64,000 nt of DNA from a virus (taxonomy: Duplodnaviria; Caudoviricetes): positions 1-64,000 of the IMG/VR virus record IMGVR_UViG_3300035498_000778; one strand, 5' to 3'. Under the pieces are notes generated by a model. It was not told the origin of the DNA. It searched no databases and worked only from the letters and a program-made list of their open reading frames with translations. This document shows, in pieces, positions 8,282-55,191 of this stretch. Each line of letters opens with the position of its first letter. Position 1 is the first letter of the stretch. Made by a program: the position numbers and the translations under genes.

Positions 8282-8336
8282 TAGTATTGACGCTGAAAGA
8301 AGCATACGCGTTAAGACTATAAAACTATTTTGCTTC
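8282..8336 (+). promoter_or_regulatory. predicted H-type pseudoknot 5' leader (copy G)
   Basis: P1 TAGT-A-TTGACGC/GCGTTAA-G-ACTA; loop GAAGCA pairs with downstream TGCTTC; followed by CATAGGAGG SD. Confidence 0.6.
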
Positions 8337-8358
8337 ATTATCATAGGAGGAATTTAAT

Positions 8359-9312
8359 ATGATTACACTAAACAAAAAAGCAGCAAAAGACAGTTATGAA
8401 GACATAAAGCAAACGATGATGGCGTTTAAAAAGGAGGTGTGTTATGGAGACGGGGATCGTGATAGTTCTGGAGACTACCTTGAGCTTTATCAAATAAAAA
8501 GAAAACATAAACTTGGTGCAGCAAGGGTTGTAGCTATGGACAATGATATCTACGTTATAAACTATGGTGCACAGTGGTACGATTCTGAAATGACATATGG
8601 TGCTCAAAACCCTGATCAAGAAACTGACCATCGCCGCAGGGAAAGATGGGATGCAGATGAAGTCGGGCTTATATCATCAATATATAGAGGTAGAAAGATG
8701 ATAAGACATATGTGCTATCCAATCACCAGTGAATATTCAAAATTTGATATGTCTATTATCGACGAAGATCTTGAGTTTATACCATCTACTAATAAAAGTT
8801 TAGAAGACATAATCACAGAACAGAAAATCATACTAGTGTATAACACCATTGATGGAATAACTTATACATTCCAATTTGTTCACGGCGATGGACGCCTATT
8901 AACAAATGATGAGTCTGATGAATTAGTAGCTGCAATGTATAAAAATACAGATAACAAAAAACAAGCCTTTATTGATACTTTCCAAATGATGTGTGATAAC
9001 GAACTAGTGAAAAGTATAAATGAGGTTGCTAGCACGATGATCGACATGAATAAACCATTCATTGACGCTTTAGCTGAATTCATTAAATCACGTGATTTAT
9101 GCGTGTTTTGTAATATGGATGTTACAGACAGTTCAGGTACATATATCACTTACAGACATTTTTATGATAAGCTTCCATTAAACCCAATAGAGAGTTATGC
9201 ACTACAAATACTTCATGACTTTAAACATGTTGCGTTAGACGAAAGCGGAATTTATACTGATCTATCATACAACGATGTAACCACAATCGTCTATAGTCGC
9301 TGTATTCAGTAA
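8359..9312 (+). CDS. hypothetical early protein
   Basis: 317 aa, AGGAGG SD, early promoter. Confidence 0.8.
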   Translation: MITLNKKAAKDSYEDIKQTMMAFKKEVCYGDGDRDSSGDYLELYQIKRKHKLGAARVVAMDNDIYVINYGAQWYDSEMTYGAQNPDQETDHRRRERWDADEVGLISSIYRGRKMIRHMCYPITSEYSKFDMSIIDEDLEFIPSTNKSLEDIITEQKIILVYNTIDGITYTFQFVHGDGRLLTNDESDELVAAMYKNTDNKKQAFIDTFQMMCDNELVKSINEVASTMIDMNKPFIDALAEFIKSRDLCVFCNMDVTDSSGTYITYRHFYDKLPLNPIESYALQILHDFKHVALDESGIYTDLSYNDVTTIVYSRCIQ

Positions 9313-9334
9313 AACAATAAATTTATGGTAACTA

Positions 9335-9364
9335 AAATGTGGGTTCTGTAGAACCCACATTTTT
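9335..9364. terminator. bidirectional terminator
   Basis: AAAATGTGGGTTCT-GT-AGAACCCACATTTT. Confidence 0.8.
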
Positions 9365-10356
9365 TATTTTAAAACTAAGGGATACCTTTGTCCGAATTCA
9401 TCTACAGCAGTATTGTTGTTTCGATTTATCTTAAGTTCTCCCTTAATTGGTAAAGGATAATCATACAATACATTTCCATTTTCATCTTCGGCTATGTATT
9501 CATAATCTCCAGTTTCATCATCATATAATACGGAGATAGTAACATTATTATTCTCATATTTAAGATATAATTCTCGTTCTCTATCTTCTTCACTAGTCTC
9601 AGTTGTATCTAGACCCTGCATGATATCGTTATTTAAATCATCCATTGTATATTCTTCATAATCAGAATAATCATCGTTATTATTGTAAGTCATATCCGCA
9701 TCTAGTATGCTATTTCTACCTCTCTTGAATAATTCATTCATGAAGGTTGATGCATACTGATTCATGTCCATTTGACCTGTATTAGATTCCTTTATGAACT
9801 TTTCTCTTTCCTTAATATTTAATTCAGCTATCATTTTTTTGGCTGCAATTAATTCCTTTACAACCTGCATACTAACAGTACGCGCAGATGTAATAGATTC
9901 AATCAAATCTGTCATATATTTTGTTACACCACGTGCACTGGATTTAGACGCTTTCATATTGTTGTATTCCTTAGTTAAATCTTCAACGAATCTGTTATGC
10001 TCTAAGTACATACTTTTTAGAATTCCAATTTCTGTATCGAACTCTTTATCATAGTCTGTTAATCCATCCTTAGTTTTTTTGTGTTTTCCTTTTCCCTTAA
10101 TAGATAGATTACTGAAGTCATCATCTGTGTACTTTTCTGTTCGTTTCGCGCTATTATTTATTTTCTTAGTAATTGCTGAAATCCAACAATCTGTATCATC
10201 ATTATCATCTTCTTTAATACTTGATCCTCTTGATGGTTCAAGTGACATGTTTGCTGTTTCTGCAAGAATTGTCTCAGATAATGACTTTGTATCCATATTA
10301 TCGATTTCATTTAAATCTTCAACGATTTTTTTAGATTTATTAATTTCCTCACTCAT
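9364..10356 (-). CDS. hypothetical protein
   Basis: 330 aa, GGAGGAGG SD, TACA-N6-TA at 10388-10399 (minus). Confidence 0.8.
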   Translation of the reverse strand: MSEEINKSKKIVEDLNEIDNMDTKSLSETILAETANMSLEPSRGSSIKEDDNDDTDCWISAITKKINNSAKRTEKYTDDDFSNLSIKGKGKHKKTKDGLTDYDKEFDTEIGILKSMYLEHNRFVEDLTKEYNNMKASKSSARGVTKYMTDLIESITSARTVSMQVVKELIAAKKMIAELNIKEREKFIKESNTGQMDMNQYASTFMNELFKRGRNSILDADMTYNNNDDYSDYEEYTMDDLNNDIMQGLDTTETSEEDRERELYLKYENNNVTISVLYDDETGDYEYIAEDENGNVLYDYPLPIKGELKINRNNNTAVDEFGQRYPLVLK

Positions 10357-10471
10357 TTTATAAGTCCTCCTCCAAGTTATTTTTGTTTAATAAATTGTAA
10401 ATCTATATAATTTAATATAAATATTTAAGATATGTAAGCAACATTTAATTAACCGATAAGGAGGGAGATAT

Positions 10472-11200
10472 ATGAGTTCAAGTTTAATGAGATCAGATGG
10501 AATAGATTTATATCTAAATACAGATTACATGGAATTTTATATTCCTGATTATTATTTCGCTGATAATTGCAAATATGCGATTGATTATGGTGCTACAATT
10601 GAAGTCTTCGGAATTTTCTGTGTCGGAATATTTGAAAAGGATAAGCTTAAAGAAATGAAGTTGCTCGAAATTCCAATGAATCTGACAATTCAATCATATG
10701 ATATTGAGATTAGAACCGTAGAGTTTAAGAGTGGACCTATGAAGTGTAGAGTAATGAAATTTATAAAAGGACAAAAGATTATGCCAGCTACATATATTCA
10801 AAAATCATCACACGTTGTTACGTTTATAAAGATGATTCTTAATGGTTATCTACCTTTATTCGTTCCTTATAATGAAGTATACAATATGCTGCTGGGTATA
10901 TGTAAAATGCACAAAGTAAATTTGGGTGTTCCGAACTACGTTCTTGAGATGATGATATCTGACTTATATAGAGATAGGTCGGATCCTACTAAAAAGTTTG
11001 CTATAACGTATGGTAAAGATTCCAAGGTTTCGGACTATGATTACCAAACGTGTAACATCCGTAAAGCATGTCAATATGCATCAACATTCTCTGCAATATC
11101 ATTCGAGGATATAGATACTATGATAACAGCATCTTTGAACAGAAGCGCTCAGGGAAAAGAAGAACCGTTTAGTCCTATGGAAGAAATCATAAAGTTCTAG
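10472..11200 (+). CDS. stand-alone RNA polymerase beta' C-terminal subunit (probably virion RNAP)
   Basis: VNLGVPNYVLEMMISDLYRD and NIRKACQYASTFSAISFEDIDTMITASL resemble RpoC C-terminal KHIEVIVRQM and [21 protein letters not shown]; late promoter at 10440-10451. Confidence 0.7.
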   Translation: MSSSLMRSDGIDLYLNTDYMEFYIPDYYFADNCKYAIDYGATIEVFGIFCVGIFEKDKLKEMKLLEIPMNLTIQSYDIEIRTVEFKSGPMKCRVMKFIKGQKIMPATYIQKSSHVVTFIKMILNGYLPLFVPYNEVYNMLLGICKMHKVNLGVPNYVLEMMISDLYRDRSDPTKKFAITYGKDSKVSDYDYQTCNIRKACQYASTFSAISFEDIDTMITASLNRSAQGKEEPFSPMEEIIKF

Positions 11201-11251
11201 GGACTAATTAGAAACATATAATTAAAAATTAATGAAAAAGGAGTTGGTTTT

Positions 11252-13123
11252 ATGCCTCAAACTGTACAAATCGTACCAAAGTATCAACACCCACATGTTG
11301 AAACATATGTTAACGATTATACTACTTTTGAAGACTCTACAAGTACAACAGCTGCCTCCAGCGGCAGAACATATCTAGCAGTCTTTCAATCGTCTAAGGG
11401 TATTGATAACAAGCTTGTGAAGATAGAGTCATCCACTGATTTTACATATGCATTTGGTAAGTCTGATTATCGTTATTACGGTCAGCCTCTAATGATGCCT
11501 ATTGCTGAATTAGAATCTGGCGCCAGTGTTTGGTGTATGAGAGTCATGCCAGAAGATGCTAAGTATGCTAATAGTGTGCTTTATCTAAATTATAAGACTG
11601 ATAGTAGTACTGGTAAGTTTATTATCAAGTTTACTGCTAAGGCGTTCACTGGTAGTGAAGCTTGTGCTGCATCCACACTAACAACTGCTGCTCTTTCTTC
11701 TAAGGATGAAGATCTAGGCGCAGAATGGACATCTGTTCCTGTTATGCTAATTAGAGCAAACGGTAGAGGAACTTATGGTAATGACTATAGATGGAGAATC
11801 ACTGTAAATAGTAAGCTAGAGAAGGAATACTCAATCAAGATGTTTAGTTTTGAAGCATTAGTTTCTGACGTTTCTAATAGCTTGACATCAGCTGAATTAA
11901 CATCCGCATCTGTTCTACTTCCAACACGTCATGAAGTATCTACATACATAAATGATATTATGGATGAAACAGATAAGTCCAAGTACCAAGTTGAATTTGA
12001 ATGTCTAGATTATAATCTAGAGGATGTTTATACAGCTTATTCTGAGTTTGTTGAAAGTCTTCCTGATGATCTAAAGACATCTAGCTCTATCCCATCACTT
12101 GATCAATTTGACCCATTCTTTGGTCTAATGCCTCTAAGCACATCAAGCGTTTTACCTAACATTGAAATGTCTGATGACGAGGATGCTCTAAAAATTGATA
12201 ATGCTGAGGGTATCGCATTGCTAGGTGGTAATGATGGTGATAATAGTGAGACTACTAAGACTAATCTATATGTCAGCGCATTTAATGGCGACATAGACAG
12301 TAAGATTTTAGTACCAAGAAGAACTCCAGTTGATGCTCTATTCGATGCTTCTTATCCATTTGAAGCTAAGAGAGCACTAGCTAAGCTAGCAAAGTATAGA
12401 GAAGATGCAATACTTTATCTAGATGCCGGCACCGACGTTACAAGTACTAGTGGTATAGAGACAGTGATCAATGATTACAGCACTTCTGAATTTGCTAGTA
12501 ATTACATAGTGAAGGATTTCCAACACTACACAGTTAGAGACCTAACATCTAGACGTCGTGTAGTAGTTTCTATGACTTATCTATACGCACAAAAGCTAAC
12601 AGCTCATCTAGATACTTATGGTATTCATAAGCCATTTGTTAAGAGCTATTGTCAACTAACTGGTCATATAAAGGATTCTCTAGAACCATGTATTGAGATT
12701 ACAGATATGGATCTAAAGGATAAGCTATACACAAATAGATTTAACTACTTTGAAGCAATTGATGAGAATCTATTCCAAAGATCATGTCAAAATACTGCAC
12801 AAACTGCAAACAGTGATTTGCTTGAAGAATCTAATATGCGTGTTCTAATCTACTTAAAGTCTAATCTTGAAAGAGATTGTATTGATGATCTATATAACTT
12901 CTCATCTCTTGAAGATAGAAATAGATTTACTAGACTTGCTATGGCTAAGTATAGTCCTATGGTTGGCGTTTCTCTTGAATCATTGAATATCTACTTCGAT
13001 CAAAATGAATGGGAACTTGAGCGTTCTATTCTTCACTGCTACGTATCCGTTACATTCAGAGGAATTCATAAGAGAACTATTGTTGAGATTGATGTCAACA
13101 AGCGTAGTCTAGAGACAGAATAA
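11252..13123 (+). CDS. tail sheath protein
   Basis: HPHVETYVND N-terminus, SSKGIDNK, FGKSDYRYYGQP, WCMRV, GRGTYGN, C-terminal sheath domain; precedes tube; late promoter 11213-11224. Confidence 0.85.
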   Translation: MPQTVQIVPKYQHPHVETYVNDYTTFEDSTSTTAASSGRTYLAVFQSSKGIDNKLVKIESSTDFTYAFGKSDYRYYGQPLMMPIAELESGASVWCMRVMPEDAKYANSVLYLNYKTDSSTGKFIIKFTAKAFTGSEACAASTLTTAALSSKDEDLGAEWTSVPVMLIRANGRGTYGNDYRWRITVNSKLEKEYSIKMFSFEALVSDVSNSLTSAELTSASVLLPTRHEVSTYINDIMDETDKSKYQVEFECLDYNLEDVYTAYSEFVESLPDDLKTSSSIPSLDQFDPFFGLMPLSTSSVLPNIEMSDDEDALKIDNAEGIALLGGNDGDNSETTKTNLYVSAFNGDIDSKILVPRRTPVDALFDASYPFEAKRALAKLAKYREDAILYLDAGTDVTSTSGIETVINDYSTSEFASNYIVKDFQHYTVRDLTSRRRVVVSMTYLYAQKLTAHLDTYGIHKPFVKSYCQLTGHIKDSLEPCIEITDMDLKDKLYTNRFNYFEAIDENLFQRSCQNTAQTANSDLLEESNMRVLIYLKSNLERDCIDDLYNFSSLEDRNRFTRLAMAKYSPMVGVSLESLNIYFDQNEWELERSILHCYVSVTFRGIHKRTIVEIDVNKRSLETE

Positions 13124-13146
13124 TGATAAGAGAGGAGTGATTTATT

Positions 13147-14103
13147 ATGGCAACAAATACATGGGATACTGCGACCTTCCAGCAAGGTATTAAGGGTGGT
13201 TATTCTAACGGTACCGAAACATCAGGCATGTCATATGCAAATATAAGTAAGTACGCTCTATTTCAGGGCGGTGTTAACGCTACTCACGATGCCCTTGTAC
13301 AATATGATCCATTGAGAAAGGGCTTTGGTAGAATATTCATGGTAAGAAAGCCTTTATTTATGGAAAAGATGAATAACGGTGAGGATATCAATATTCTTAA
13401 GCACCTAATTGAATACGCTAATACGGGTGTATCAGGTCTCGGATCTATAGAAATGAAGAATAGTGATATGACCGGTGGCTATTCAGGAAGATCTATTCCA
13501 ATACCTACAATATCCAATGATACTGGTACTACTGATATCTCTATCAGTATGTACGAATTTGCAGGATCACCAGTCATGAGAACACTAAAGATGTGGATTC
13601 ATGGTATGTCTGATATTCAATCGGGTCTTGCTCACATGAACGGTACTGATGTTGAAGCTACACTAGCAAATGAAACTGCAGAATTTATTTATGTTGTTAC
13701 CGATAATACTGGTAAGTACGATCACATCGAATTTGCTTGTATGTTTGCGTGCTGCTTCCCTACATCTGTAGAGGAATCTCATTTTGAATACAAAGCTGGT
13801 GATGTAGATATCGTCGATATAACAGTTAAGTTCAAGTGTATAAAGTACGAATCTGCACAGATCAACGAAGTTGCAAAGCTACTAATGAGAAAGTATACAA
13901 CATTAGTAAACAGCATCAATATGTACCCAGGATATTCAATTGGATCAAATAATACACTAAAAGCAACAGGTGACACAGATGATACAAATCGTACAGATAC
14001 ATACTATGATGTAGATACTGGCGAACTAACGAAATATAGTTCTAGCAATACAGACAATGAGTCATTACAGAATCTAATTGCTAACGGCTATTACGAACAA
14101 TAA
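13147..14103 (+). CDS. tail tube protein
   Basis: Directly follows sheath; 318 aa; YEFAGSPV..W and CFPTSV..F.Y pattern of tube proteins. Confidence 0.75.
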   Translation: MATNTWDTATFQQGIKGGYSNGTETSGMSYANISKYALFQGGVNATHDALVQYDPLRKGFGRIFMVRKPLFMEKMNNGEDINILKHLIEYANTGVSGLGSIEMKNSDMTGGYSGRSIPIPTISNDTGTTDISISMYEFAGSPVMRTLKMWIHGMSDIQSGLAHMNGTDVEATLANETAEFIYVVTDNTGKYDHIEFACMFACCFPTSVEESHFEYKAGDVDIVDITVKFKCIKYESAQINEVAKLLMRKYTTLVNSINMYPGYSIGSNNTLKATGDTDDTNRTDTYYDVDTGELTKYSSSNTDNESLQNLIANGYYEQ

Positions 14104-14114
14104 AGATTATAATA

Positions 14115-14154
14115 AAATATATTTCCTAGGTCTTAAGACCTAGGAAATATATTT
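14115..14154. terminator. 40-bp perfect palindrome, bidirectional terminator
   Basis: AAATATATTTCCTAGGTCTT|AAGACCTAGGAAATATATTT between convergent tube and portal genes. Confidence 0.85.
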
Positions 14155-14162
14155 GTAACTTG

Positions 14163-16475: not shown

Positions 16476-16565
16476 AATATTTTTCTCCTTTCAAATTCTT
16501 TAATCATTATCTTAATGTTAAATTTACGAATTTTTATCATACAGGAAATAATCCTGTATGATAAT

Positions 16566-17264: not shown

Positions 17265-17333
17265 AGTATATTTCCTTTCTTTTTATTATTAAGTATGTAA
17301 CAGAGAAATCTGTTACATACTTGTTTTTATCAT

Positions 17334-25586: not shown

Positions 25587-25613
25587 ATTAATTACCTCCA
25601 TGATCTTTATTAT

Positions 25614-25658
25614 ACATCCTGAATGTAAGATATAGAACGGATGTTCGATTCTATATCT
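25614..25658 (-). promoter_or_regulatory. predicted H-type pseudoknot 5' leader (copy D)
   Basis: AGATATAGAA-tcga-ACATCC-g-TTCTATATCT-tacattca-GGATGT. Confidence 0.7.
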
Positions 25659-25730
25659 GAGTGAATATAAACGTAGCTACCGAGAAGCGTATAATTGCTC
25701 CTCGGTAACTTGGTGCTGAAAAACCAACCA

Positions 25731-26225: not shown

Positions 26226-26345
26226 GATTATACCTCCTTGGTATATGTATATGCACATCCTTATACTGGAACATAGAAACGATGTGCTAATATTAATTTC
26301 TATATTCACAATTATAATATATAATTAAATCTCAAGTTATTACGG
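26223..26345 (-). repeat. cassette copy C: bipartite early promoter + pseudoknot leader + RBS
   Basis: Near-identical to copies A/B from the promoter core through GATGTGC; CCGTAAT box retained, spacer diverged. Confidence 0.9.
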
Positions 26346-26408
26346 GTCTAATCTATATCAGAAACAATAACTTAAAATAATAATTTATAATGAAAGGTAA
26401 GTGATTTT

Positions 26409-38936: not shown

Positions 38937-39022
38937 TTAAGTATTAATATAGATATAAAGATGGCATTTTAAGATAGAGAGGGCTAATCCTCTCTATCTT
39001 AAATATCTAACGTAAAATTTAA

Positions 39023-39036
39023 TTATATATTATAAT
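39023..39036 (+). promoter_or_regulatory. early promoter core
   Basis: TTATATATTATAAT followed by TGTGAA as in cassettes; CGTAAAA upstream. Confidence 0.7.
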
Positions 39037-39095
39037 TGTGAATAAGATAAAATAATCAACAATATATTGGTTTTAAAAAGGAGGTATCAATACCA

Positions 39096-40964: not shown

Positions 40965-43079
40965 ATGAAAGCTAAAGTTATTATAGACAACGGTGAGGAG
41001 ATAAGAAAGAGTAAATTCTTATCAAAATGGAAAAAAGATATGATGAAGAGTATGCTTCAGATGAATCCACAATGGAGTGAAGAGAAAATAAGTGATATCA
41101 TAGATGATATGATAATCGAAAGATTCCAAAACCCAGAGGTGCTATGCGATAATAATTATACACACGAGTCAAAAAGAAGTAACTTGTTAGACGTCGTTGA
41201 CTGGGTAATGGATAAGAAACCTATTATTGCAGGAAATGGAACTTTTTATTTGAATCAAGATCAAGCAATTAATCCGAACGCTGTAATGGTAAATTCATTT
41301 CTAGCAGAGCGTAAAGCTATAAAGAAAAAGATGTTCTCAATTGAGGATGACACCAGCGAAGAATATGCGGCATGTGATAGAGATCAGGGTAATAAGAAAA
41401 GGTTAGCGAATTCATATTATGGAGGTTCAGGTGCTGAAACGTCAGCGTTTTATTCAAAGTGGAGTGCTCCTGCAACTACACTAACTGCACAGTCGGTAAT
41501 TAGTACCTGTGAGAGTACGATAGAAGCATTTTTAGGTAATAACTTCTTATTCTTAGATTTAGATGAGTGTATCCACTGGATGAATTTGGTGTTGAAAGAA
41601 AATCCTAAATCAGATAAATGGCTCACAAGTCATAATATAGATGATGTATTTGAGCGATTAGTGTCTAGATTCTATGATTATAACAACAGGTATGATCATA
41701 TTTTATATGAGTATCTATCGAATTGTAATCAAGATGAATTGAACGCCATTTATTATAAGAATAATATAACTGCGTTTACAAGTGAGAACTCATATGTATG
41801 TGATTTATACGAGAAGGTGTTCTCCAATGTTCAGATATATGAGACTGCAGATGATATAGCTTCTGTACCTGAGTTCTTTATATCCAAGCATTTAGACTTA
41901 GATGAAAATGCTATTATTAAAAAATGGAATTTATTTGTTAATGAATCGGCATTTCTTAATCCTAATAGTATCCCAGAAGCTGTCGCGTCATATATGGACG
42001 AGATTAAAAAGTTATATATGAAATACGTTTACATCGATTATATAATCGCAGATAAAATATATAGATTAAGGAAGTTCAAGCGAGATGCGGTTGTAATCGT
42101 TGATACTGATTCATGTATAATACAAATGGACACATGGACAGAATTATGTAGAAATTATATAATGAAATCAGATTATGGAAGAAATCCTGACATGAATACG
42201 TATATAGCTATCAACTCTATGACTGCTATCCTAACGGATGTTATTAGAGACATATTATATAAATATAGCCATTATACTAATATATGTGAAGAGCATTGTC
42301 GAGTTTTCAATATGAAGAACGAATTTTTATTCAGTAAGCTCATAATCGGAACTAAAAAGAAAAGATACATGAGCTTGATAAAAGTACGTGAAGGCACATT
42401 GCTCACAAAAGAAAAGTACGACGTTAAAGGTTTTGACTACATGAAGAGTGGAACCTCTATACAGGCAAAAGAATTCTTCGATCATATAGTTAAAGATTTA
42501 ATGTTATACACAAAGGATATAGATGTGTCATGTATTCGTAAAGAGTTAGAGATATTCACTAATAATATTTATAATGATTTACAAGCAGGGAATACTGGGT
42601 TCTTACCATTATTAAAGGTTAAAGAAGCAGGAAATTACGCTGATCCTTGGAGAGAAGCAGGTGTTCGTGGTGCTGTAACGTGGAATATATTGTATCCTGA
42701 CGAAGGTATAGAATTTCCAGTCAGTGTATCTGCGTTAAAGCTTACTATTAACGATGAATCCGATATAGCAGAATTACAATATACAGATCCAGAAATATAT
42801 GAAAAACTACTAGAGGTTTTGAATCATGAAATGACATACAAGGTTAGTAAAAGTGGAAAACGAGAATCGAGAGGAATTGCTATATTATGCATCCCACAAG
42901 GTGCTAAGATACCTGAATGGACTAAACCTTATATTGATTACGAAACAATCATTAATACAATAATCGGTAAGTTTAAAGGCGTAAGTAATTTGCTAAAGAT
43001 TAAATCTATAAAGGTAGGAAAGAAGATAGGATCCAATGATAGAAAGAGTGAGAAGTTATCTAACATAATAGGATTCTAA
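40965..43079 (+). CDS. family B DNA polymerase, C-terminal half (motifs B and C, thumb)
   Basis: QGNKKRLANSYYG (motif B), VIVDTDS (motif C), KKKRY, DVKGFD. Confidence 0.85.
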   Translation: MKAKVIIDNGEEIRKSKFLSKWKKDMMKSMLQMNPQWSEEKISDIIDDMIIERFQNPEVLCDNNYTHESKRSNLLDVVDWVMDKKPIIAGNGTFYLNQDQAINPNAVMVNSFLAERKAIKKKMFSIEDDTSEEYAACDRDQGNKKRLANSYYGGSGAETSAFYSKWSAPATTLTAQSVISTCESTIEAFLGNNFLFLDLDECIHWMNLVLKENPKSDKWLTSHNIDDVFERLVSRFYDYNNRYDHILYEYLSNCNQDELNAIYYKNNITAFTSENSYVCDLYEKVFSNVQIYETADDIASVPEFFISKHLDLDENAIIKKWNLFVNESAFLNPNSIPEAVASYMDEIKKLYMKYVYIDYIIADKIYRLRKFKRDAVVIVDTDSCIIQMDTWTELCRNYIMKSDYGRNPDMNTYIAINSMTAILTDVIRDILYKYSHYTNICEEHCRVFNMKNEFLFSKLIIGTKKKRYMSLIKVREGTLLTKEKYDVKGFDYMKSGTSIQAKEFFDHIVKDLMLYTKDIDVSCIRKELEIFTNNIYNDLQAGNTGFLPLLKVKEAGNYADPWREAGVRGAVTWNILYPDEGIEFPVSVSALKLTINDESDIAELQYTDPEIYEKLLEVLNHEMTYKVSKSGKRESRGIAILCIPQGAKIPEWTKPYIDYETIINTIIGKFKGVSNLLKIKSIKVGKKIGSNDRKSEKLSNIIGF

Positions 43080-43118: not shown

Positions 43119-43260
43119 TTTGTTATTTACCGTAATAGCATATTATTTAATTATATATTATAATTGTGAATATAGAGATTAATATTAGCACATCGTTTCT
43201 ATGTTCCAGTATATAAGGATGTGCATCTTACATACCATAGGAGGTATAATTATGAAAACA
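43119..43260 (+). repeat. cassette copy B: early promoter + pseudoknot leader + RBS + first 3 codons
   Basis: 139/142 identical to reverse complement of 5668..5809; pseudoknot 43168-43224. Confidence 0.95.
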
Positions 43261-45257: not shown

Positions 45258-45357
45258 AATTGATTATATATTATAATCTTAATGTGTACCAGTAAATTAT
45301 TATTGAGTATACATAAAGTTAAAATAAATTCAAACAAGAAAAAATGGAGGTTTTGCT

Positions 45358-46035: not shown

Positions 46036-46100
46036 TAAAAAAGTATGTCTAAAAGATGGAGCAAGTTGCTCCATCTTTTTTATGTTTGGGAGGAATAAAA

Positions 46101-46826: not shown

Positions 46827-46906
46827 TTTAGAGGAAACCGCATTTTTTATTAACTGTAAACAATAGTATAAATTAAATTTCAAATTTTTATGGAGGAAAT
46901 TGTTTT

Positions 46907-48853
46907 ATGAGTACAGAAAAACTAGAAAGAGAAAATGCCACATTTGGCGAAAGGCATGGCTTACATTTAGAGCCAATGTCTAACACACTAGGTAAGAGTG
47001 AATTCCAAACAAGAGTTAAAAAGGTATTTGCAGCTATTGCAGATAAGATTGGAAAGTCATTAGGACCCGGTGGCGAAACAACTTTTATTGCAAATTACCC
47101 TTATGTCCACCCAACAAAGGATGGTTATACAATCATGAAGAATCTAAGTTTTGACTTGTTCATCGATGATATAATTAAGGATATGGCGGATAAAGTTTGT
47201 AGTAGATTAAACTATAGTGTCGGTGACGGTACTACAAGTGCTATTATGGCTACTAACGCAGTTTATGATTCAGTAGCAACATCTCTAGATACCTATGGGT
47301 ACAAGTCAAGAGAAATAACTGAAGCATTTGATGAGATTCGTGAGGAAGTTGTTTCAGCTATGAAACAAGTAGCTATTGATATCCGCACAGATGATTCTAC
47401 GGAACTAGCACAGCGAGTACGTGAGATAGCATCTATATCATCTAACGGTAACGATGAAATTATTAACATAGTTACTGATTTATATTCTACTCTTATGTAT
47501 CCAGCTATTACAGTGGTACTAGCTAAGGATGGTGTGACTAAGTCAAGAATTATAAGAGGATATGAAGCTGAGGTACTATTAACTGATAAGATGTACATAA
47601 ATAATGATGATAATACAATGAATATTAATTCAGGTGACGTTATCGTTTTTGACCATAAGGTTAACGAGAATACATACAAGAGTATCATAAAGCCTTTAAA
47701 TGAAGAATGTAAGGCTAGGGGTAGAAAGTTGGTCGTTATTGCACCTTTTTATGATGAGGTAGCTTTAACAGGTATCATTAGACGTGATATTCTTGACGAA
47801 TACAACAAGGGAAAGTCAGTGAACCTAGTATTGACTGCTTGTAGAAACATGAATAGTAATCACAAGAACATGATTGCAGATTTAGCCATGTTATTGAATA
47901 CAGAGCTAATCACTAGCGGTAGAGAAGAAGAAATCGTTAAATCTACAGCTAGAGATAATATTCAAAGATTCTTTAACCTAGACGATAGAGCTATTGATGG
48001 TATATCTGTAGCAGCCTTAGGTTTAGATGTTGAGACTAAGAGCCCATATCTTTATATAGTTCCTGAGGAGGATAGAGCTAACCATAAGTTTATAGACTGG
48101 ACACTGGAGGAAGATCAAAAAACACCAACGGGTATCAGTCGTATTCGTGTAGGATTCGCTCGTAATATTGAATTAGGTCTTGGTTCATCTATCTTTGGTG
48201 ATTTTGTTTATAACGAAGACTTGTATAACAAGTTCTTGCAAGATGCAAAGATAGACTTAGAAGAGACTGTCGAAAAGTATAAGAAGCTAGGCTCGTTTAG
48301 TACTGAGGTTGTAAACAAGCAAAAGAGATTATATCGTCTAGGAATGAAGATGGGTATAATTGAAGTAGGCGGAGAATCTGATATATCTCAGAAGTATCTA
48401 AAGGATGCTGTTGATGATACAGTAAGAGCAGTAGAATCTGCATACAATCATGGTATTGTACAAGGTTGTCATGTAACACTTGTTGATGTATTGAAGTCCA
48501 TTGTTACTGGCTATAGAAAGTTGGTTAATGATGGCGAAATCGTATCAGAAGATGCCATAGAACACAACAAGTTGAAGATTATGCTAGTCTCATCCTTAAT
48601 TACTGGATTTACATCAGTATATGAATCAGTCCTAAGAAATGCTGATATATCTGATGATGACATTAGTAGTATTACCACAGAATCAAGTAAACAGGTAATT
48701 GCTTACAACATCATGACAAAGTCATATGATGGTACAGTAATCAATAGTTGTGAGACTGATATTGAAATTCTCCGTGCGGTTATAGATTTAGTGGGACTAA
48801 TAGTGACTGCTAATCAGTTAGTAATTTGTGAAGGAAGAAATGGTGATCAGTAA
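46907..48853 (+). CDS. groEL: phage GroEL-like chaperonin
   Basis: SLGPGG, TKDG, VGDGTTS, IEVGG..DAVDD; no GroES adjacent. Confidence 0.9.
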   Translation: MSTEKLERENATFGERHGLHLEPMSNTLGKSEFQTRVKKVFAAIADKIGKSLGPGGETTFIANYPYVHPTKDGYTIMKNLSFDLFIDDIIKDMADKVCSRLNYSVGDGTTSAIMATNAVYDSVATSLDTYGYKSREITEAFDEIREEVVSAMKQVAIDIRTDDSTELAQRVREIASISSNGNDEIINIVTDLYSTLMYPAITVVLAKDGVTKSRIIRGYEAEVLLTDKMYINNDDNTMNINSGDVIVFDHKVNENTYKSIIKPLNEECKARGRKLVVIAPFYDEVALTGIIRRDILDEYNKGKSVNLVLTACRNMNSNHKNMIADLAMLLNTELITSGREEEIVKSTARDNIQRFFNLDDRAIDGISVAALGLDVETKSPYLYIVPEEDRANHKFIDWTLEEDQKTPTGISRIRVGFARNIELGLGSSIFGDFVYNEDLYNKFLQDAKIDLEETVEKYKKLGSFSTEVVNKQKRLYRLGMKMGIIEVGGESDISQKYLKDAVDDTVRAVESAYNHGIVQGCHVTLVDVLKSIVTGYRKLVNDGEIVSEDAIEHNKLKIMLVSSLITGFTSVYESVLRNADISDDDISSITTESSKQVIAYNIMTKSYDGTVINSCETDIEILRAVIDLVGLIVTANQLVICEGRNGDQ

Positions 48854-49632: not shown

Positions 49633-49706
49633 ATAAACGATTATATATTATAATGATGATATAACAACCGAATATGTTTTGTCTTTCGAAAGGAGAAATT
49701 ATTATC

Positions 49707-51248
49707 ATGAGTATGATTCCAAAAATAACTAAGTGGAAAAACAACGGTAAAGTGAAACTTGTTGATTATGACAACAAGCAATTTATAATTCACTTTGATG
49801 AGAAGTTGAATAATCCCGCGTTAGCATGCTACAATACGTTCATTATCAACAAAACTAGTTATGCAAATAAGTTAGATTCTATAAGCAGATATATAGCTTA
49901 TTTCATGAAGTACTATGATGAAGATGACGAACTACTGATGGCGTATTTAAAACTTAAGCATGATGTCGATGTTGTACATAAGTACACAGCCGATAATATG
50001 GATGAGTTTATAAACGATTTGTATGAGATTATGTTTACACCTTCAATCGAGCATAACCTTGACCAACTTGTAGAGTATAATAACGTTATTGACATTGAGT
50101 CTGACGACGACGGTAAAAAACAATACAAGACGACTAAGAAGTATGTGGAAAGTCTAGAGTTCACAAATAAGCACGTATCGTTATTATACAAGATAAGTTT
50201 TTGTATGAAGATGATAATACCCATCATGATGCACTACTTCGTAGTCAATAGGATTAAACCTAATAGTGATGAGAGTGGGAATATTTATAAATTCTTTGAG
50301 CCACTAATGGGTTCTAGATTTTCCAGTGAGATTAATATATACAACAAGTTATACGTGTATGTTAAATGCAAAATCCAAGAGAACCGTTCTCAAAATAGTA
50401 CTATCTATGAGCAGCGTGATATCTTTGGTAAGGACATCTCTACTTTGACGCAAGAATTTCTACGTAAGAAACTGATAACCGAGAATTTGTTTAAATATGA
50501 ATTTAATGGTAACCCTGTTGCATTAAACAAGACTATCGTGCAATCTCAATTAGGATATTTCATCAAAGAGAAGTATACTAAAACTATGACTCTTGTTAAT
50601 ATGGAACAGAATGGTGATGGACTATCAGGTATGGAAAAACTAGAAATGAGCATGGCTAAACTCGATGAAGGTATGCTAATATTTGCAGAAATTAACATAG
50701 CAAACGCCATAGAATCAATAAGAAACAGATACCAGTTCGATATAGGCGAAGATGAGTTACAATATATGATTCAATACCATATACCTTGTGAACTACAGAT
50801 AGAATTGATAACTCTGTTCTTTACTAAATACTTTGGCGAGTCCAGGAATATAAAACTATGCAATAAGAGGCAATACTGTACACTAGCTTTAATTTTAAAG
50901 AAACTATTACTAACGATGGAAGCTAATGAAACAGGTCAATTGGATATCAGTTATCTACCTTATGTGTTAACTGGTAATCTAGATGGAAAGGTTGAAGAAT
51001 CTATTATCAGAAACAACAAATTTGTTAATAAGCTACAAGCGTCTCCCAAGTATCAACAGTTAATTAATACAAAATATAAAGCTTTGGAAGAAATTCGTCC
51101 AGATACAATTTTGCTACTAATATCTTCTCTATGCAAGACACATTTTACCTATGTTACTCCTGAATATAAAGAAAAAACAGGAGAACCAATAGATACTAAT
51201 AAAAACAAGTTAGCATATGAGATGATTAATCTACTTTCATTAGCATAG
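49707..51248 (+). CDS. probable non-virion RNAP promoter-specificity subunit (AR9 gp226/phiKZ gp68-like)
   Basis: ~513 aa helical protein two genes from GroEL (as AR9 gp228/gp226); early promoter 49641-49654; called from synteny and size only. Confidence 0.5.
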   Translation: MSMIPKITKWKNNGKVKLVDYDNKQFIIHFDEKLNNPALACYNTFIINKTSYANKLDSISRYIAYFMKYYDEDDELLMAYLKLKHDVDVVHKYTADNMDEFINDLYEIMFTPSIEHNLDQLVEYNNVIDIESDDDGKKQYKTTKKYVESLEFTNKHVSLLYKISFCMKMIIPIMMHYFVVNRIKPNSDESGNIYKFFEPLMGSRFSSEINIYNKLYVYVKCKIQENRSQNSTIYEQRDIFGKDISTLTQEFLRKKLITENLFKYEFNGNPVALNKTIVQSQLGYFIKEKYTKTMTLVNMEQNGDGLSGMEKLEMSMAKLDEGMLIFAEINIANAIESIRNRYQFDIGEDELQYMIQYHIPCELQIELITLFFTKYFGESRNIKLCNKRQYCTLALILKKLLLTMEANETGQLDISYLPYVLTGNLDGKVEESIIRNNKFVNKLQASPKYQQLINTKYKALEEIRPDTILLLISSLCKTHFTYVTPEYKEKTGEPIDTNKNKLAYEMINLLSLA

Positions 51249-51262
51249 ATAAAAGAAATTTT

Positions 51263-51292
51263 AAATACAAGTCTCATATGAGACTTGTATTT
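51263..51292. terminator. 30-bp perfect palindrome + T-tract
   Basis: AAATACAAGTCTCAT|ATGAGACTTGTATTT. Confidence 0.8.
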
Positions 51293-51337
51293 TTTTAATA
51301 ACAGTTAGTTAAATTAATAAAAGGAGATTATACTATT

Positions 51338-52354
51338 ATGGAAATACGTGAATTAAAGTCACAGATAATACAGTCTATTATTACTAGACCTGTATTCTCA
51401 AAATATAATGGGGATGAATTAGTTACTAAGTGCCCTTTTTGTGGAGATAACAATAAATTAGACGACGGTCATTTATATATACAAACCAATGAACTCGATG
51501 ATTCCAAACCGATGTTATATCACTGCTTTAAATGTAATGAGAGTGGTAAAGTGAACACGGAGTTATTGGAACTACTAGATATCTTCGATGATGAGATAAA
51601 TTCAGATCTTAGTAGAATGAATAAATCTAAATATAAGATAGTAAATGTTAAGAATAACGAATTGAAAACTTATAAATGGAAGATGCCAATCGCCACAAAA
51701 AGGGACATCAACAAAATACAATATATTGAAAAACGCCTAGGCATTAAGCTCAACAAGTATATATACGATGATGCAAAAATTGTGCCTAATCTTAAAGATT
51801 TTCTTAGATTAAATGAACTAACCGCAACCTGCAAAGATGATATGCTTGATATTGTGTCAAATAATTTTGTAGGTTTTATGACTTCACGAGGTACACATAT
51901 ATGGTTTAGAAACATTAAGGATAGCGGTGAAATACGATGGTATAAGTACCCCATTATTCACTGTACTGCGGGTAAAAACTATTATTCTATAAAAACGGAA
52001 ATAGATATATTGAGCCCTGACAATATTAATATCAACTTATGTGAGGGCGTGTTTGACGCATTATCCATTGCATACAATTTATGCTATGAGAGTGATTTAA
52101 ACATAGCAGTCGGATCTACAGATTATTTACCAGTCATCAATCACATTATATCATTGGGACTAGTGGGAGATAATATAACACTGAATATATACAGTGATAA
52201 TGACAATAATGCGACAACGTCAATACAAAATTATAGGAGATTACTATATGGTTTCAAACCAATATTTAAGGAAATTAATATATATTATAATTTATTAGAG
52301 AAAGATTGTGGTGTGCCCAGAGAAAAGATAAGATTGAAAAAAGAGATAATATAA
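51338..52354 (+). CDS. DNA primase (T4 gp61-like)
   Basis: CPFCGD...YHCFKC zinc ribbon; TOPRIM LCEGVFDAL and YSDND. Confidence 0.85.
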   Translation: MEIRELKSQIIQSIITRPVFSKYNGDELVTKCPFCGDNNKLDDGHLYIQTNELDDSKPMLYHCFKCNESGKVNTELLELLDIFDDEINSDLSRMNKSKYKIVNVKNNELKTYKWKMPIATKRDINKIQYIEKRLGIKLNKYIYDDAKIVPNLKDFLRLNELTATCKDDMLDIVSNNFVGFMTSRGTHIWFRNIKDSGEIRWYKYPIIHCTAGKNYYSIKTEIDILSPDNININLCEGVFDALSIAYNLCYESDLNIAVGSTDYLPVINHIISLGLVGDNITLNIYSDNDNNATTSIQNYRRLLYGFKPIFKEINIYYNLLEKDCGVPREKIRLKKEII

Positions 52355-52391
52355 ATACAGCTACAGGTCAACTGTAGTTGTATTTTTTTAT

Positions 52392-53234
52392 TTATATTCC
52401 TAACCAAGCTATAGCATCATAAACAGATTCATTTACATCATTGATCGTTGTATTCTGGGTACTTTTATAATTTATTATAACTTGCTTAAGATTTCGAAGA
52501 ATACTGCTATACGCCAATTGAGCAACCTGTAAAGATAATTTGTACCTTCTAATTTCTAAGTTGGTAACTTTATTAATAATAGTACTTAGTTCGCTATCAT
52601 ATTGAGGTATGCGTCGGTTACAATAATTGATAGTATCATTCACTAAACGTTCGCACGTCTTAACATCATTATTAAGTCGGTCTACTGCACTAGCCATATG
52701 GTCAATATATTTATAGTTTATAATATCCTCAACATATATTTTCGAGTTTTTGAGGGTGTTATCTGAGATATCTTTTTCGATGCTTTCAAATATTTCGTTA
52801 TTACAATTAATTGACTCATTCATTTCCTCTTTAACTATTTTAAACGCTTCGTCGTATACTGCTCTCGCCTCTTTTCTGGCACGCTTTGCAAGTCGTTCAG
52901 GAATATTATCCAATTCTTTATTAAGTGCGTCCATATCGATGTCAGAACTTATAAGATCACCCTCTACTTCATCAATCATTGAACGAAGAGCTTTTATATT
53001 ATTTGATATGCTAGAGGTTGTATTCAACGTCTTTAAATAATAATCTACATTTATAACGTCAACTTGCAATTTAAGTATATTTTTATCCTCTTTAGCTAAT
53101 TCTCTTACCCTTGATAAGTAGTTATCGGAATTCTTCTTAAAAATTACGCTTTGTAATTTTTCAATAAACTCTTTTATTTTTTCTTTTATGGCTTTAAATA
53201 ACTCACCTAATCTAGTCTTAATTTTTTCAAGCAT
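52392..53234 (-). CDS. orphan member of inner-head paralog family
   Basis: Begins with family helix LEKIKTRLGELFKAIKEKIKEFI; ends VNESVYDAIAWLGI. Confidence 0.65.
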   Translation of the reverse strand: MLEKIKTRLGELFKAIKEKIKEFIEKLQSVIFKKNSDNYLSRVRELAKEDKNILKLQVDVINVDYYLKTLNTTSSISNNIKALRSMIDEVEGDLISSDIDMDALNKELDNIPERLAKRARKEARAVYDEAFKIVKEEMNESINCNNEIFESIEKDISDNTLKNSKIYVEDIINYKYIDHMASAVDRLNNDVKTCERLVNDTINYCNRRIPQYDSELSTIINKVTNLEIRRYKLSLQVAQLAYSSILRNLKQVIINYKSTQNTTINDVNESVYDAIAWLGI

Positions 53235-53337
53235 TAATAAAAACTCCTTTCATTTGTGCTTATTATGTATACTGTTTTTAAATAGTTCATAACAATAATG
53301 TAATAAAATTTTTATAACTTGAAAGGATTGATAAATA

Positions 53338-53775
53338 ATGATAACAAAATTTGAGGGCGACTACGATTATTTAAATATGTTTCACAACTGTTCAGTGACA
53401 TTTGAAGGTAGAACATATCTCAACGCATATGCGGCTTATCAAGCAAGTAAATGTGCTAATGAAAACGACAAACGTGCATTCACTAGATTAAATGCCCTCA
53501 AGGCTAAGAAGAGGTCTCGTACCATTACTGCTAGAGACGATTGGGATAAAATAAAGTTTGATATCATGTATAAGATACAAGAGGCAAAGTTTACACAGAA
53601 TGAAGACTTGAAGGAAAAACTATTAAAAACTAAGGGTCTAATTGTTAACAACACAAGTTATCCTGATAAAGACTACGGAGTACATAATGGACGAGGCAAG
53701 AACGCATTAGGAGCAATCTTAATGGAATTACGTGATAATTTATTATCACAGGAAAGAGATCAAACCGAGGAATAA
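53338..53775 (+). CDS. NADAR (YbiA-like) family protein
   Basis: YQASK, RDDWDKIK..IM, AKFTQN..LKEKLLKT, GKNALG.ILMELR. Confidence 0.85.
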   Translation: MITKFEGDYDYLNMFHNCSVTFEGRTYLNAYAAYQASKCANENDKRAFTRLNALKAKKRSRTITARDDWDKIKFDIMYKIQEAKFTQNEDLKEKLLKTKGLIVNNTSYPDKDYGVHNGRGKNALGAILMELRDNLLSQERDQTEE

Positions 53776-53835
53776 AATAACTACGCTTATGGACTAAAAC
53801 AAAGTTCCATAAGCGTAGTCTTTTTTGTCGTGTAA

Positions 53836-54099
53836 TTAACGACTATAAAATCTTCTTTCATTATATACATTTTCCATCATGCCTTTCTTTAGGACATATC
53901 TGAAATCAAAGTCCAATGGTCTATTAATTCCTAATGCCTTATATAAATCTTTTCGATATGAAATATCATGCTTGTAATCGTAAAATCCTATGTCTGTCAT
54001 CCATTCTTCATATCCCTTATCATATAGTCGCACATCAATGTTTGTTCCTTCAATCCATTTTTCCCTCTTCTTATTCTTCAAAAACAGCATTAATATCAT
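53836..54099 (-). CDS. small hypothetical protein
   Basis: GAAAGGA SD; AACA-TTAATA-TA at 54138-54149 (minus). Confidence 0.6.
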   Translation of the reverse strand: MILMLFLKNKKREKWIEGTNIDVRLYDKGYEEWMTDIGFYDYKHDISYRKDLYKALGINRPLDFDFRYVLKKGMMENVYNERRFYSR

Positions 54100-54178
54100 A
54101 TCCTTTCTCTTGTTCTACATAATATTTTTTCTTTCTATATATTAATGTTTGTTTTGAGTATATGATAAATAATCGTTA

Positions 54179-54213
54179 CCGTAATGACGTAAACTATAGT
54201 TATATATTATAAT
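54179..54213 (+). promoter_or_regulatory. bipartite early promoter CCGTAAT-N14-TTATATATTATAAT
   Basis: Exact match with 14-nt spacer. Confidence 0.75.
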
Positions 54214-54266
54214 TGTGAAGTAAAGAAATAATGAGTACATTATGAACTACTTCAATATGTAAGCAC

Positions 54267-54318
54267 ATCCTGATCTGGAATATTGGAACGCCCAAATCAG
54301 GATATTTTCTATGTTCCA
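54267..54318 (+). promoter_or_regulatory. predicted H-type pseudoknot 5' leader (copy E)
   Basis: ATCCTGATCTGG-aatat-TGGAAC-gc-CCAAATCAGGAT-attttctat-GTTCCA. Confidence 0.7.
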
Positions 54319-54348
54319 TCGGGGAAAGCTTAAAGGAGGCCCCATATC

Positions 54349-54495
54349 ATGAAAGAAATGTTCGAACGTATGGTTGAAGAAATCGCTGAGGCTCAGAACT
54401 ACATAGACAGTAGCTGGGATGCTGTAGGGCATTCATCTGTTTACTGGACTAATGACAATAGCTCAGATGAAACTTTCGATTATTACGAAGCCTAA
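54349..54495 (+). CDS. 48-aa acidic early peptide (not in ORF track)
   Basis: AAGGAGG SD; MKEMFERMVEEIAEAQNYIDSSWDAVGHSSVYWTNDNSSDETFDYYEA. Confidence 0.65.
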   Translation: MKEMFERMVEEIAEAQNYIDSSWDAVGHSSVYWTNDNSSDETFDYYEA

Positions 54496-54589
54496 GAATT
54501 TTGATATTCATGATGACATAAGTAAGCCCGTTGAGATTCAGAACCTCAACGATCCACTCTAGACCATAGATTCTTAAGGAGGAATCATT

Positions 54590-55039
54590 ATGTTAAGAAC
54601 AACCTTAACCAACACTATATCCGCTATTAGCGGAGTAATCTCTAAGGCACATGCCGCTCACCCAATAATCACTGGGTTAGTATTGTCAGAAGCTATCGAA
54701 ATGGGTATTAGAACTGTCAGCGGAATAATAACCACTGCAGTATTCAAAGTAGCCAAGATAGAAGACAGCCCTATGCCAACTGACACTGATGATATCGTTA
54801 GCATGACTCTCAAGCTTTCAGCCAGCAAAAGACGTATATGCTGTAACGGTATAGTCATTGCTCTTAGAGTATTAGTCATACTTGCATTGGGTACTATTCA
54901 GAGCCCAATTGCAGCATCACTCGTGAGATTCCTAATATTCGATAACGTACTTACACTCATCTCTGGTATAATAGTTCCTTATATGATGCGTGCGTTATTA
55001 CATGGTATCGATAAAGTCTCAGAAGTATGTGCTGCATAG
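54590..55039 (+). CDS. multi-TM membrane protein
   Basis: 149 aa; several hydrophobic segments; AAGGAGG SD. Confidence 0.7.
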   Translation: MLRTTLTNTISAISGVISKAHAAHPIITGLVLSEAIEMGIRTVSGIITTAVFKVAKIEDSPMPTDTDDIVSMTLKLSASKRRICCNGIVIALRVLVILALGTIQSPIAASLVRFLIFDNVLTLISGIIVPYMMRALLHGIDKVSEVCAA

Positions 55040-55141
55040 TAAACCCACAAAACAATATTCATCTCACTCAGAGTACAAATTGTACTCATTCATAATATTC
55101 ATCGCATTGGGTTTAAAGTGAGTATACCTTATTTATAAACA

Positions 55142-55191
55142 AGGTGGATACGTAAAACGGAACGACGTATTCATCTAAATTCTATGTTCCG
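55142..55191 (+). promoter_or_regulatory. predicted H-type pseudoknot 5' leader (copy F)
   Basis: AGGTGGATACGT-aaaa-CGGAAC-g-ACGTATTCATCT-aaattctat-GTTCCG. Confidence 0.7.

Follow-up and report, generated by a model that had tools for sequence, protein, structure and literature searches.

Closest described systems

In T4-type phages, PeSL cassettes place a repeated terminator hairpin and early promoter before small ORFans in variable regions, and near-identical copies head unrelated genes (PMC2839356, PMC4122927). The same arrangement recurs in the DNA studied here, a 64,000-base window (bases 1-64000) of the 124,892-base virus record IMGVR_UViG_3300035498_000778 (33.6% G+C; estimated to be about half complete), which comes from an AR9-like, AT-rich, uncultured jumbo phage; two copies of its cassette, A and B, are ~98% identical over ~140 nucleotides (nt). 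Unlike PeSL, which have a sigma-70 promoter, the unit repeated here uses a promoter of the AR9 virion RNA polymerase type and adds a structured pseudoknot leader of 60-100 nt and a ribosome-binding site (RBS). The conserved 11-nt RNA sequence within that leader, which we call the box, reaches far beyond one phage genus. A further mark of PeSL is cassette-mediated gene exchange between sister phages; among the relatives searched, no sister genome was close enough to show it.

Considered as RNAs, the leaders have other counterparts. In Firmicutes, 5'-terminal structures block 5'-end-dependent decay (PMC3997798), and the described 5' stabilisers and processed 5' hairpins include the aprE and ermC leaders, SP82 early RNA and cggR-gapA (reviewed in PMC3997798 and PMC7509114). 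The presumed hosts here are likewise RNase J1 and RNase Y organisms, one class of leader has a stem that starts at the predicted first nucleotide, and in relatives a hairpin would become terminal after a cut at the box. However, the structure here is a pseudoknot rather than a simple hairpin, and an invariant 11-mer is no feature of known stabilisers. The T4 gene 32 pseudoknot is also of H-type and lies at a phage mRNA 5' end, upstream of an A/U-rich stretch and the RBS, but it is a single copy on the gene of its binding protein, whereas at least nine copies occur here on unrelated ORFans, among which no likeness to a single-stranded DNA-binding protein was found. The lambda nut and HK022 put elements are short conserved RNA elements tens of nucleotides past early promoters, repeated in units with internal hairpins, as is the box; with no similarity of sequence or fold, and with a phage multisubunit polymerase at work here, this is an analogy only. 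The element is thus closest to T4-type PeSL as a mobile cassette and to Firmicute 5' stabilisers and the T4 gene 32 pseudoknot as an RNA, and is a member of none of these groups.

A conserved box in early leaders

The untranslated leaders of early units in this record carry strand-specific, selected RNA helices together with a selected 11-mer. The exact sequence TTCTATGTTCC is common to leaders A, B, C, E, F, H and F2 (Table 1), and F3 has the variant CTCTATGTTCC. A third-order Markov model predicts 0.08 copies in the record, against the seven exact copies observed, all of them on the sense strand and in leaders, with none elsewhere; overall, the box is in sense orientation in 8 of 8 copies. 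The record holds neither a complement of the box elsewhere nor any tRNA gene, which led us to reject a phage-encoded antisense RNA or tRNA as its partner.

The same letters are embedded in two different folds. In class 1, the box is the 3' arm of the first helix, P1, whereas in class 2 its bases 1-6 lie in loop 3 and its last five form the 3' arm of the second helix, P2, pairing with GGAAC in the P1 loop. Within 54277-54317 (+), leader E offers the 3' half of the box two mutually exclusive partners, GGAAUAU just upstream and UGGAACG; nested folding favours a long hairpin that uses the entire box, a possible alternative conformation. Because an identical sequence occupies differing structural contexts, the box is constrained beyond local pairing. 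An earlier reading of the same DNA, made without database searches (the sequence-only reading), had held that structure is conserved and sequence is not. The helices are indeed kept through sequence change, but the exact TTCTATGTTCC in seven leaders contradicts the second half of that statement, and the fold alone is not what persists, as the 11-nt box, not the pseudoknot, is kept across phages. We conclude that the box is the conserved unit and the pseudoknot a local elaboration of it.

A bipartite intergenic promoter is repeated in the genome: CCGTAA, exactly 17 nt, ATATATTAT, 6 nt and G(+1). In Bacillus phage AR9, the early consensus used by the virion RNA polymerase has been mapped by experiment as AAATATATATTAT-N6-G(+1) (PMC5312081). 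The repeated promoter matches it, and on this match we assign the promoter to the AR9 early type and infer the +1 positions. The bipartite pattern is highly specific, with 13 IMG/VR matches in five jumbo-phage contigs of one metagenome; 32 matches were found in metagenome contigs, human-gut assemblies among them, and cultured AR9-like phages have only the promoter core in common with it. Leaders A, B, C, E and H directly follow an early promoter and D, F, F2 and F3 are internal leaders of those units, so the claim that all lie in early-promoter units holds within this genome. A terminator-like hairpin stands directly upstream of the promoter in B and H, and cassette B begins 50 nt past the stop codon of a divergent family-B DNA polymerase gene (PF20286), behind a terminator hairpin. 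The phage record also encodes an SMC-like ATPase and a GroEL-like chaperonin homologue without a Pfam match, whose nearest cultured matches, at ~25% identity, are in the jumbo phages PB50 and Machias (Staphylococcus), BpSp and Goe21 (Bacillus) and LPJP1 (Listeria).

Pseudoknot predictions compared with chance

The sequence-only reading had listed seven pseudoknot leaders, A to G, and a helix finder that enumerates helices independently of it returned identical P1 and P2 arms and end points for all seven. In prediction, A to F have H-type geometry (S1 of 8-12 base pairs (bp), S2 of 6-7, L1 of 3-9, L2 of 0-5 and L3 of 8-11), and the pseudoknot ends 9-21 nt before the Shine-Dalgarno sequence (SD). 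Predicted energies are -7.6 to -12.1 kcal/mol for P1 alone and -4.0 to -9.9 kcal/mol for P2 as a hairpin. Both are -9.8 kcal/mol in leader A, so that nested folding chooses either helix; the modelled loop lengths permit P1 and P2 together.

For each of 97 SD-led genes, drawn from the whole record, the 75 nt preceding the SD were scored for their best H-type pseudoknot (P1 ≥ 7 bp, P2 ≥ 6 bp), and the scores were compared with those of 485 dinucleotide shuffles. The top six leaders were F, C, F2, A, B and D (scores 38-43), and leader E, which lies outside the 97-gene set as its open reading frame (ORF) has 48 codons' worth of amino acids (48 aa), scored 35 on its own leader. Only 0.2% of the shuffles reached 35 or more, and 2.5% reached 31 or more. 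Leaders A to F are the best H-type candidates in this genome, and shuffled sequence rarely reaches their scores. Copy G scored 31, a value that chance alone would give ~2.4 times among 97 leaders; it has a fold z-score of -1.2 and no sequence in common with the other leaders. Its two helices exist, but as its score is at chance level and it shares no sequence with the others, including the box, we do not accept it as the same fold in different letters, and of the seven proposed copies only A to F stand as a family.

Nor are these copies independent of one another, as a count of seven would imply. A and B differ at 3 positions over ~140 nt, from ~25 nt upstream of the promoter core to base 8 of the ORF, and C has promoter, leader and RBS in common with them, while the proteins that follow are ORFans unrelated to one another. 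A, B and C are one ~140-nt promoter-leader-RBS cassette that counts as a single observation and reveals its portability. F, F2 and F3 are paralogues. The proteins behind C and D are only 21% identical (E = 1e-7), which makes the C/D duplication an old one. The H cassette departs from A, B and C directly past the box, and E and F, which form the second architecture (class 2), have the box alone in common.

Compensatory changes in both helices

Differences between copies preserve pairing. Relative to A, P1 of D has three two-sided changes (G-C to A-U, A-U to G-C and A-U to U-G) and one one-sided change (U-G to U-A), with no pair broken, and its P2 register is shifted around a common CAUC/GAUG core. 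Two P2 pairs of H are altered on both sides compared with A, F2 and F3 each have one two-sided plus several one-sided P1 changes, and E has U-A where F has C-G as the outer pair of P2. The class-2 layout also occurs in Staphylococcus phage PB50 (locus L318), with a 13-bp P1, UGGAUCA in the loop, 11 nt including UUCUA, and then UGAUCCA; the central P2 pair is A-U here, with a TGTTCC box, and U-A at the PB50 locus, with a TGATCC box. Covariation was counted qualitatively, pair by pair, as MAFFT alignments failed to line up the helix arms. Two-sided changes number three in D and one each in F2 and F3 for P1, and two in H, one between E and F and one between the PB50 locus and F for P2; no internal pair is disrupted. 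Qualitative support for both helices is good, albeit from few related sequences.

The A>G difference in P1a of B gives a G-U pair, and both this change and a conserved U-G of P1 pair in sense-strand RNA only. The compensatory swaps in D, the G-U pair in B and the P2 covariation between E and F, all noted in the sequence-only reading, are confirmed with no pair broken, and its proposal of RNA-level, strand-specific structured leaders on early ORFan genes gains support from the sense-only G-U pairs and the compensatory changes.

Searches of known families and rejected candidates

Rfam 15 gave no gathering-level match in the 64 kilobases (kb), and permissive scans of the leaders returned chance-level hits only (E 1-8, up to E 10), none relevant, in agreement with the sequence-only reading, which did not recognise a known Rfam family. 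The box as a sequence string was not found in the searched literature and is apparently undescribed. It is not an AR9-type promoter, as no late start listed in AR9 Table S3 is preceded by it and it has no AACA at the distance required by the AR9 late consensus AACA-N6-TA/G. A search of IMG/VR with the class-2 pattern (GGAAC, gap, box) gave at least 117 matches, all of them chance occurrences in coding DNA (FYVP codons).

Several modes of action were also tried and set aside. UGAUCC is complementary to GGAUCA in the 3' tail of Firmicute 16S rRNA, but pairing there was set aside: a joint helix would need the box on the other side of the SD, and the sequence in this genome is UGUUCC. The AUG within the box is not a plausible upstream ORF start, with no SD upstream and unconserved peptides of 3-20 codons, and CsrA-like GGA sites are inconsistent across copies.

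The box in relatives and cultured AR9-like phages

Four metagenomic relatives (G001-G004, 134-262 kb) were read whole. Relatives were reached chiefly via the early-promoter pattern; the DNA-polymerase route gave a single usable one, at 45% identity, the value for the G001 DNA polymerase. Megablast against phages gave no match, and none of the relatives found belongs to this phage's TGTTCC lineage. The relatives have a sister form of the box, TT(C/G)TATGATCC, which is over-represented 18-32x in the four metagenomic phages and lies in their early leaders 25-50 nt past the predicted +1. In G001 to G004, respectively, TTCTATGATCC occurs 10, 9, 2 and 4 times against 0.31, 0.28, 0.11 and 0.21 expected, and TTGTATGATCC was observed 5 times against 0.27 expected and 5 times against 0.23. 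The synonymous neighbour, with TTT for TTC, occurs once, compared with 25 occurrences, which argues for nucleotide-level selection and against a codon artefact.

The box is also present in four of the four cultured AR9-like giant phages checked (Goe21, BpSp, PB50 and LPJP1, infecting Bacillus, Staphylococcus and Listeria), with 4-11 copies of TT(C/G)TATGATCC per phage. The degenerate form TTSTATGWTCC occurs 7 times in Goe21, 13 in PB50, 10 in BpSp and 9 in LPJP1, while its reversed control gives 0-1. Of the 37 copies retrieved from cultured phages, about 60% are intergenic; those within genes are 9 sense and 4 antisense. The sites are in early leaders, between cistrons just past hairpins, or directly after terminator U-runs, usually 8-50 nt upstream of the SD, and roughly three quarters of the classifiable copies are sense to transcription.

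Pseudoknots do not accompany the box everywhere. An exact partner for its 3' half was found in 7 of 50 non-coding box families across all phages examined (4% for permuted control words), the upstream partners always being 21-32 nt away, and we reject the pseudoknot as a universal feature. The nearest relatives instead flank the box with two ordinary hairpins. In G001-type leaders, it stands between a GAAGG/CCUUC hairpin and a second hairpin that uses the last 2-6 box bases as its 5' arm, and the 3' arm of this second hairpin clearly covaries.

Two further patterns were noted in the relatives. In G003 and G004 (L211-L230), many early leaders have a perfect 8-11-bp hairpin right at the predicted +1. 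Its 5' arm starts GAATAGA and its 3' arm, ending TCTATTC, resembles the box; hairpins at the 5' end therefore seem to be general in this phage group. In G001, the exact reverse complement of the box fills the spacer between SD and start codon (GGAGGATCATAGAA, then ATG) of three unrelated non-early genes, one of which follows a late-type AACA-N6-TA promoter. By sequence complementarity, an early leader could pair over 13 nt with these ribosome sites of G001 and G002; this genome has no such copy.

Possible control of mRNA 5'-end fate and rival readings

The reading we lean towards, at rather less than an even chance, is that these are structured 5' leaders of early transcripts organized around an 11-nt RNA box (UUCUAUGUUCC here, UU(C/G)UAUGAUCC in relatives and cultured AR9-like phages) and that their role is in mRNA 5'-end fate, with box pairing setting access. 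Promoter-leader-RBS cassettes would have spread through the genome, coming to head accessory genes unrelated to one another. In class 1 (A, B, C, H and D), an 11-12-bp hairpin has its first base at the predicted transcription start and the box as its 3' arm; pairing of its loop with a site 9-33 nt downstream gives a second helix that would lock it as an H-type pseudoknot. Given the inferred +1, such a transcript would open with a blunt 11-12-bp helix that P2 locks. In class 2 (E, F, F2 and F3), GGAAC in the loop of a variable hairpin would pair with the 3' half of the box, leaving UUCUAU in loop 3. Terminal structure may shield the transcript from 5'-end-dependent decay (RppH, RNase J1) in a Firmicute host, and the box may be the recognition or cleavage site of a conserved trans-acting factor whose access is set by box pairing. 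The 5'-end protector, one of the options offered by the sequence-only reading, fits class 1 best because there the predicted +1 is the first base of P1. Given the +1 of the AR9 consensus, structure would stand at the transcript 5' end in class 1 and in a separate hairpin of the E unit, and in F, F2, F3 and D only if these are processed.

The best concrete candidate for the factor is a host RNase Y-type endonuclease that would cut UAUG↓A. In B. subtilis, RNase Y favours cutting at G↓A where a U stands at -2/-3, the single strand is AU-rich and structure follows downstream (PMC11780869). In the relatives the box, UAUG↓AUCC between AU-rich flanks, resembles this weak preference in an unusually strict form; the G001-type hairpin starts 0-4 nt past the G. 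In the nearest relatives, the 3' end of the box doubles as the 5' arm of a hairpin, and a cut after the box G would leave a downstream RNA that starts exactly with this hairpin. Several observations weigh against such a role. The RNase Y consensus is weak and cannot alone explain an invariant 11-mer; this genome has G↓U where the preference is G↓A, with the box largely paired and, in class 1, fully so, making it a poor single-strand substrate. Some copies lie in ORFs (the sense and antisense copies of cultured phages) or in a 3' untranslated region, where a cleavage site is harder to rationalize, class-2 leaders are away from any predicted transcript start, and the covariation is drawn from few related sequences, namely one genome and one PB50 locus.

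The box could instead be the operator of a phage RNA-binding regulator or of the phage RNA polymerase, with the pseudoknot and hairpins merely presenting or hiding it, acting in translational repression and early shut-off like T4 RegA or as a nut/put-like signal that modifies the polymerase soon after initiation. We consider this rather unlikely, even though the identity of the 11-mer across leaders with different folds speaks for it, as do its placement (most early leaders have it 25-50 nt away from the predicted +1, like nutL and putL) and the internal hairpins followed by further boxes in box-bearing units. In-gene copies would be tolerable for such a signal. The leaders of this record carry only the U form at box position 8 (7 exact; the single TTGTATGATCC is ORF-internal), while the A form predominates in G001-G004 and the cultured phages, with the U form a minority, and a mostly lineage-wide choice at this position would fit co-evolution with a phage-encoded partner. 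Yet no candidate protein was identified, the box-SD distance of 4-52 nt makes direct occlusion of the ribosome site unlikely in most copies, and several LPJP1 and BpSp boxes come directly after a terminator U-run, the wrong side for anti-termination there. Alternatively, the box could be a site in the DNA, recognized by a DNA-binding factor, targeted by a nicking or homing enzyme, or serving as the junction where mobile cassettes recombine; the helices would then be incidental inverted repeats. Such a site would account for the reverse complements in the SD-ATG spacers of three unrelated non-early genes of G001/G002 (a fourth copy is just upstream of an SD), the four antisense in-gene copies of cultured phages, LPJP1 reverse complements 6-21 nt upstream of early promoter cores, and the loss of similarity past the box in H and outside it in E and F. 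We regard it as improbable, since most classifiable copies are sense (all of those here), conserved G-U pairs and two interleaved sets of compensated arms make sense only in sense RNA, and no AR9 transcription start maps to the box.

The two remaining explanations have far less to commend them. The near identity of A, B and C and the paralogy of F, F2 and F3 would be expected if the likeness were a by-product of recent cassette duplication, with helices and box functionless. However, D kept both helices despite the protein divergence noted above, E and F share nothing beyond the box, the synonymous neighbour is nearly absent, and conservation of the box across phages, including those whose GroEL-like protein is ~25% identical, makes this very improbable. 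A ligand-sensing riboswitch, another option of the sequence-only reading, has in its favour a pseudoknot topology just upstream of the SD, as in the preQ1, SAM-II and guanidine-III classes. It is the least probable of the explanations considered: Rfam gave no relevant match when the threshold was relaxed to E = 10, the ORFans downstream are unrelated to one another and lack any metabolic link, the two classes do not share their loops and junctions, and the SD is outside the fold.

A broader proposal is that UUCUAUG(A/U)UCC is a pan-AR9-group RNA signal read by a conserved machine, either the phage multisubunit RNA polymerase (nut/put-like processivity or attenuation) or a dedicated phage or host endoribonuclease. 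We hold this to be possible but doubtful. If true, jumbo phages infecting Bacillus, Staphylococcus, Listeria and gut Firmicutes would have a post-transcriptional regulon in common, and the pseudoknots here may be evolved masks that tune which early mRNAs respond. AR9-like jumbo phages transcribe with two RNA polymerases of their own, described so far at the promoter level only; with a strictly conserved leader box in phages of three cultured host genera plus uncultured gut phages, they would gain a first signal of a post-transcriptional kind. Its reach across the AR9-like group makes the box more interesting than a single-genome repeat, and it is directly testable in phages that can be grown (AR9, PBS1, BpSp and PB50). 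The portable promoter-pseudoknot-RBS cassette shows a route by which new accessory genes come under early control, in parallel to PeSL, and for RNA biology it provides a compact pseudoknot that comes with naturally occurring compensatory variants and with one strand whose invariance calls for an explanation.

Feature coordinates and minor observations

Table 1. Leaders, promoters and other features. Positions are those of the window unless a record or genome is named. P1a to P2b, helix arms; S1, S2 and L1 to L3, stem and loop lengths; aa, amino acids.
Feature	Position	Strand	Parts and lengths	Remarks
Leader A (class 1)	5684-5760	-	P1a 5749-5760, P2a 5734-5740, P1b 5722-5733, box 5721-5731, P2b 5704-5710, SD 5684-5688; A, B and C: S1 12 bp, L1 8, S2 7 bp, L2 0, L3 9-11	ATG 5676, 94-aa ORFan with predicted membrane helix
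Leader B (class 1, cassette as A)	43168-43244	+	P1a 43168-43179, P2a 43188-43194, P1b 43195-43206, box 43197-43207, P2b 43218-43224	ATG 43252, 97-aa ORFan
Leader C (class 1)	26234-26307	-	P1a 26296-26307, P2a 26281-26287, P1b 26269-26280, box 26268-26278, P2b 26253-26259	ATG 26225, 164 aa
Leader D (diverged class-1 paralogue)	25595-25658	-	P1a 25648-25658, P2a 25639-25644, P1b 25628-25638, P2b 25614-25619; S1 11, L1 3, S2 6, L2 0, L3 8	Box decayed to TTCTATATCTT (within P1b); behind 14-bp terminator-like hairpin (25675-25710), after gene C; ATG 25586, 148 aa
Leader E (class 2)	54267-54338	+	P1a 54267-54274, P2a 54284-54290, P1b 54296-54303, box 54307-54317, P2b 54312-54318; S1 8, L1 9, S2 7, L2 5, L3 8	Separate 5'-terminal hairpin starts at predicted +1 (54217), ~50 nt upstream; ATG 54349, 48 aa
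Leader F (class 2, internal leader of E unit)	55143-55205	+	P1a 55143-55153, P2a 55158-55164, P1b 55165-55175, box 55180-55190, P2b 55185-55191; S1 11, L1 4, S2 7, L2 0, L3 9	ATG 55216, 251-aa membrane-anchored acidic protein
F2 (F paralogue)	77758-77817 (record)			Outside window
F3 (F paralogue)	78348-78410 (record)			Outside window
H (class 1)	77099 (record)		L3 33	Outside window; same P1 as A
Copy G	8282-8336	+	Helices of 7 + 6 bp compatible with pseudoknot; S1 7, L1 5, S2 6, L2 3, L3 16	No box; not accepted
Early promoter (virion RNA polymerase type), cassette B	43129-43167	+		Pattern match
Early promoter, leader A	5761-5799	-		Pattern match
Early promoter, leader C	26308-26346	-		Pattern match
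Early promoter, leader E	54178-54216	+		Pattern match
Further early promoters with bipartite pattern	39001-39039, 62093-62131	+		Pattern match
Family-B DNA polymerase gene	40965-43079	+
GroEL-like chaperonin gene	46907-48853	+
UACAU(A) words	5693-5698 (-), 43230-43235 (+), ~26240-26247 (-), ~25622-25627 (-)
Paired ATGs of F-type gene	55205-55218	+
F protein	55216-55971	+
G004, examples of +1 hairpins	239663, 231415, 80875, 163903, 200607 (G004)	-
G001, reverse-complement sites	78288 (+), 214014 (+), 159774 (-) (G001)			Orthologous sites in G002

Two minor features of the leaders and their genes were noted. In B. subtilis and S. aureus, UACAU(A) is the cleavage motif of EndoA/MazF. This word is found in loop 3 of leader D and, in A, B and C, in the stretch separating P2 from the SD; with two independent occurrences, chance may well explain it. 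Two ATGs follow the SD of F-type genes, 3 and 10 nt away. The 251-aa frame starts at the second alone, and from the first runs a frame of 35 codons, kept in F2 and F3 (as TTG in F3). The N-terminus of the F protein gives a weak, sub-cut-off match (E = 2.6e-4) to the FeoB-associated Cys-rich membrane protein family PF12669, beyond which the protein is acidic and matches no family.

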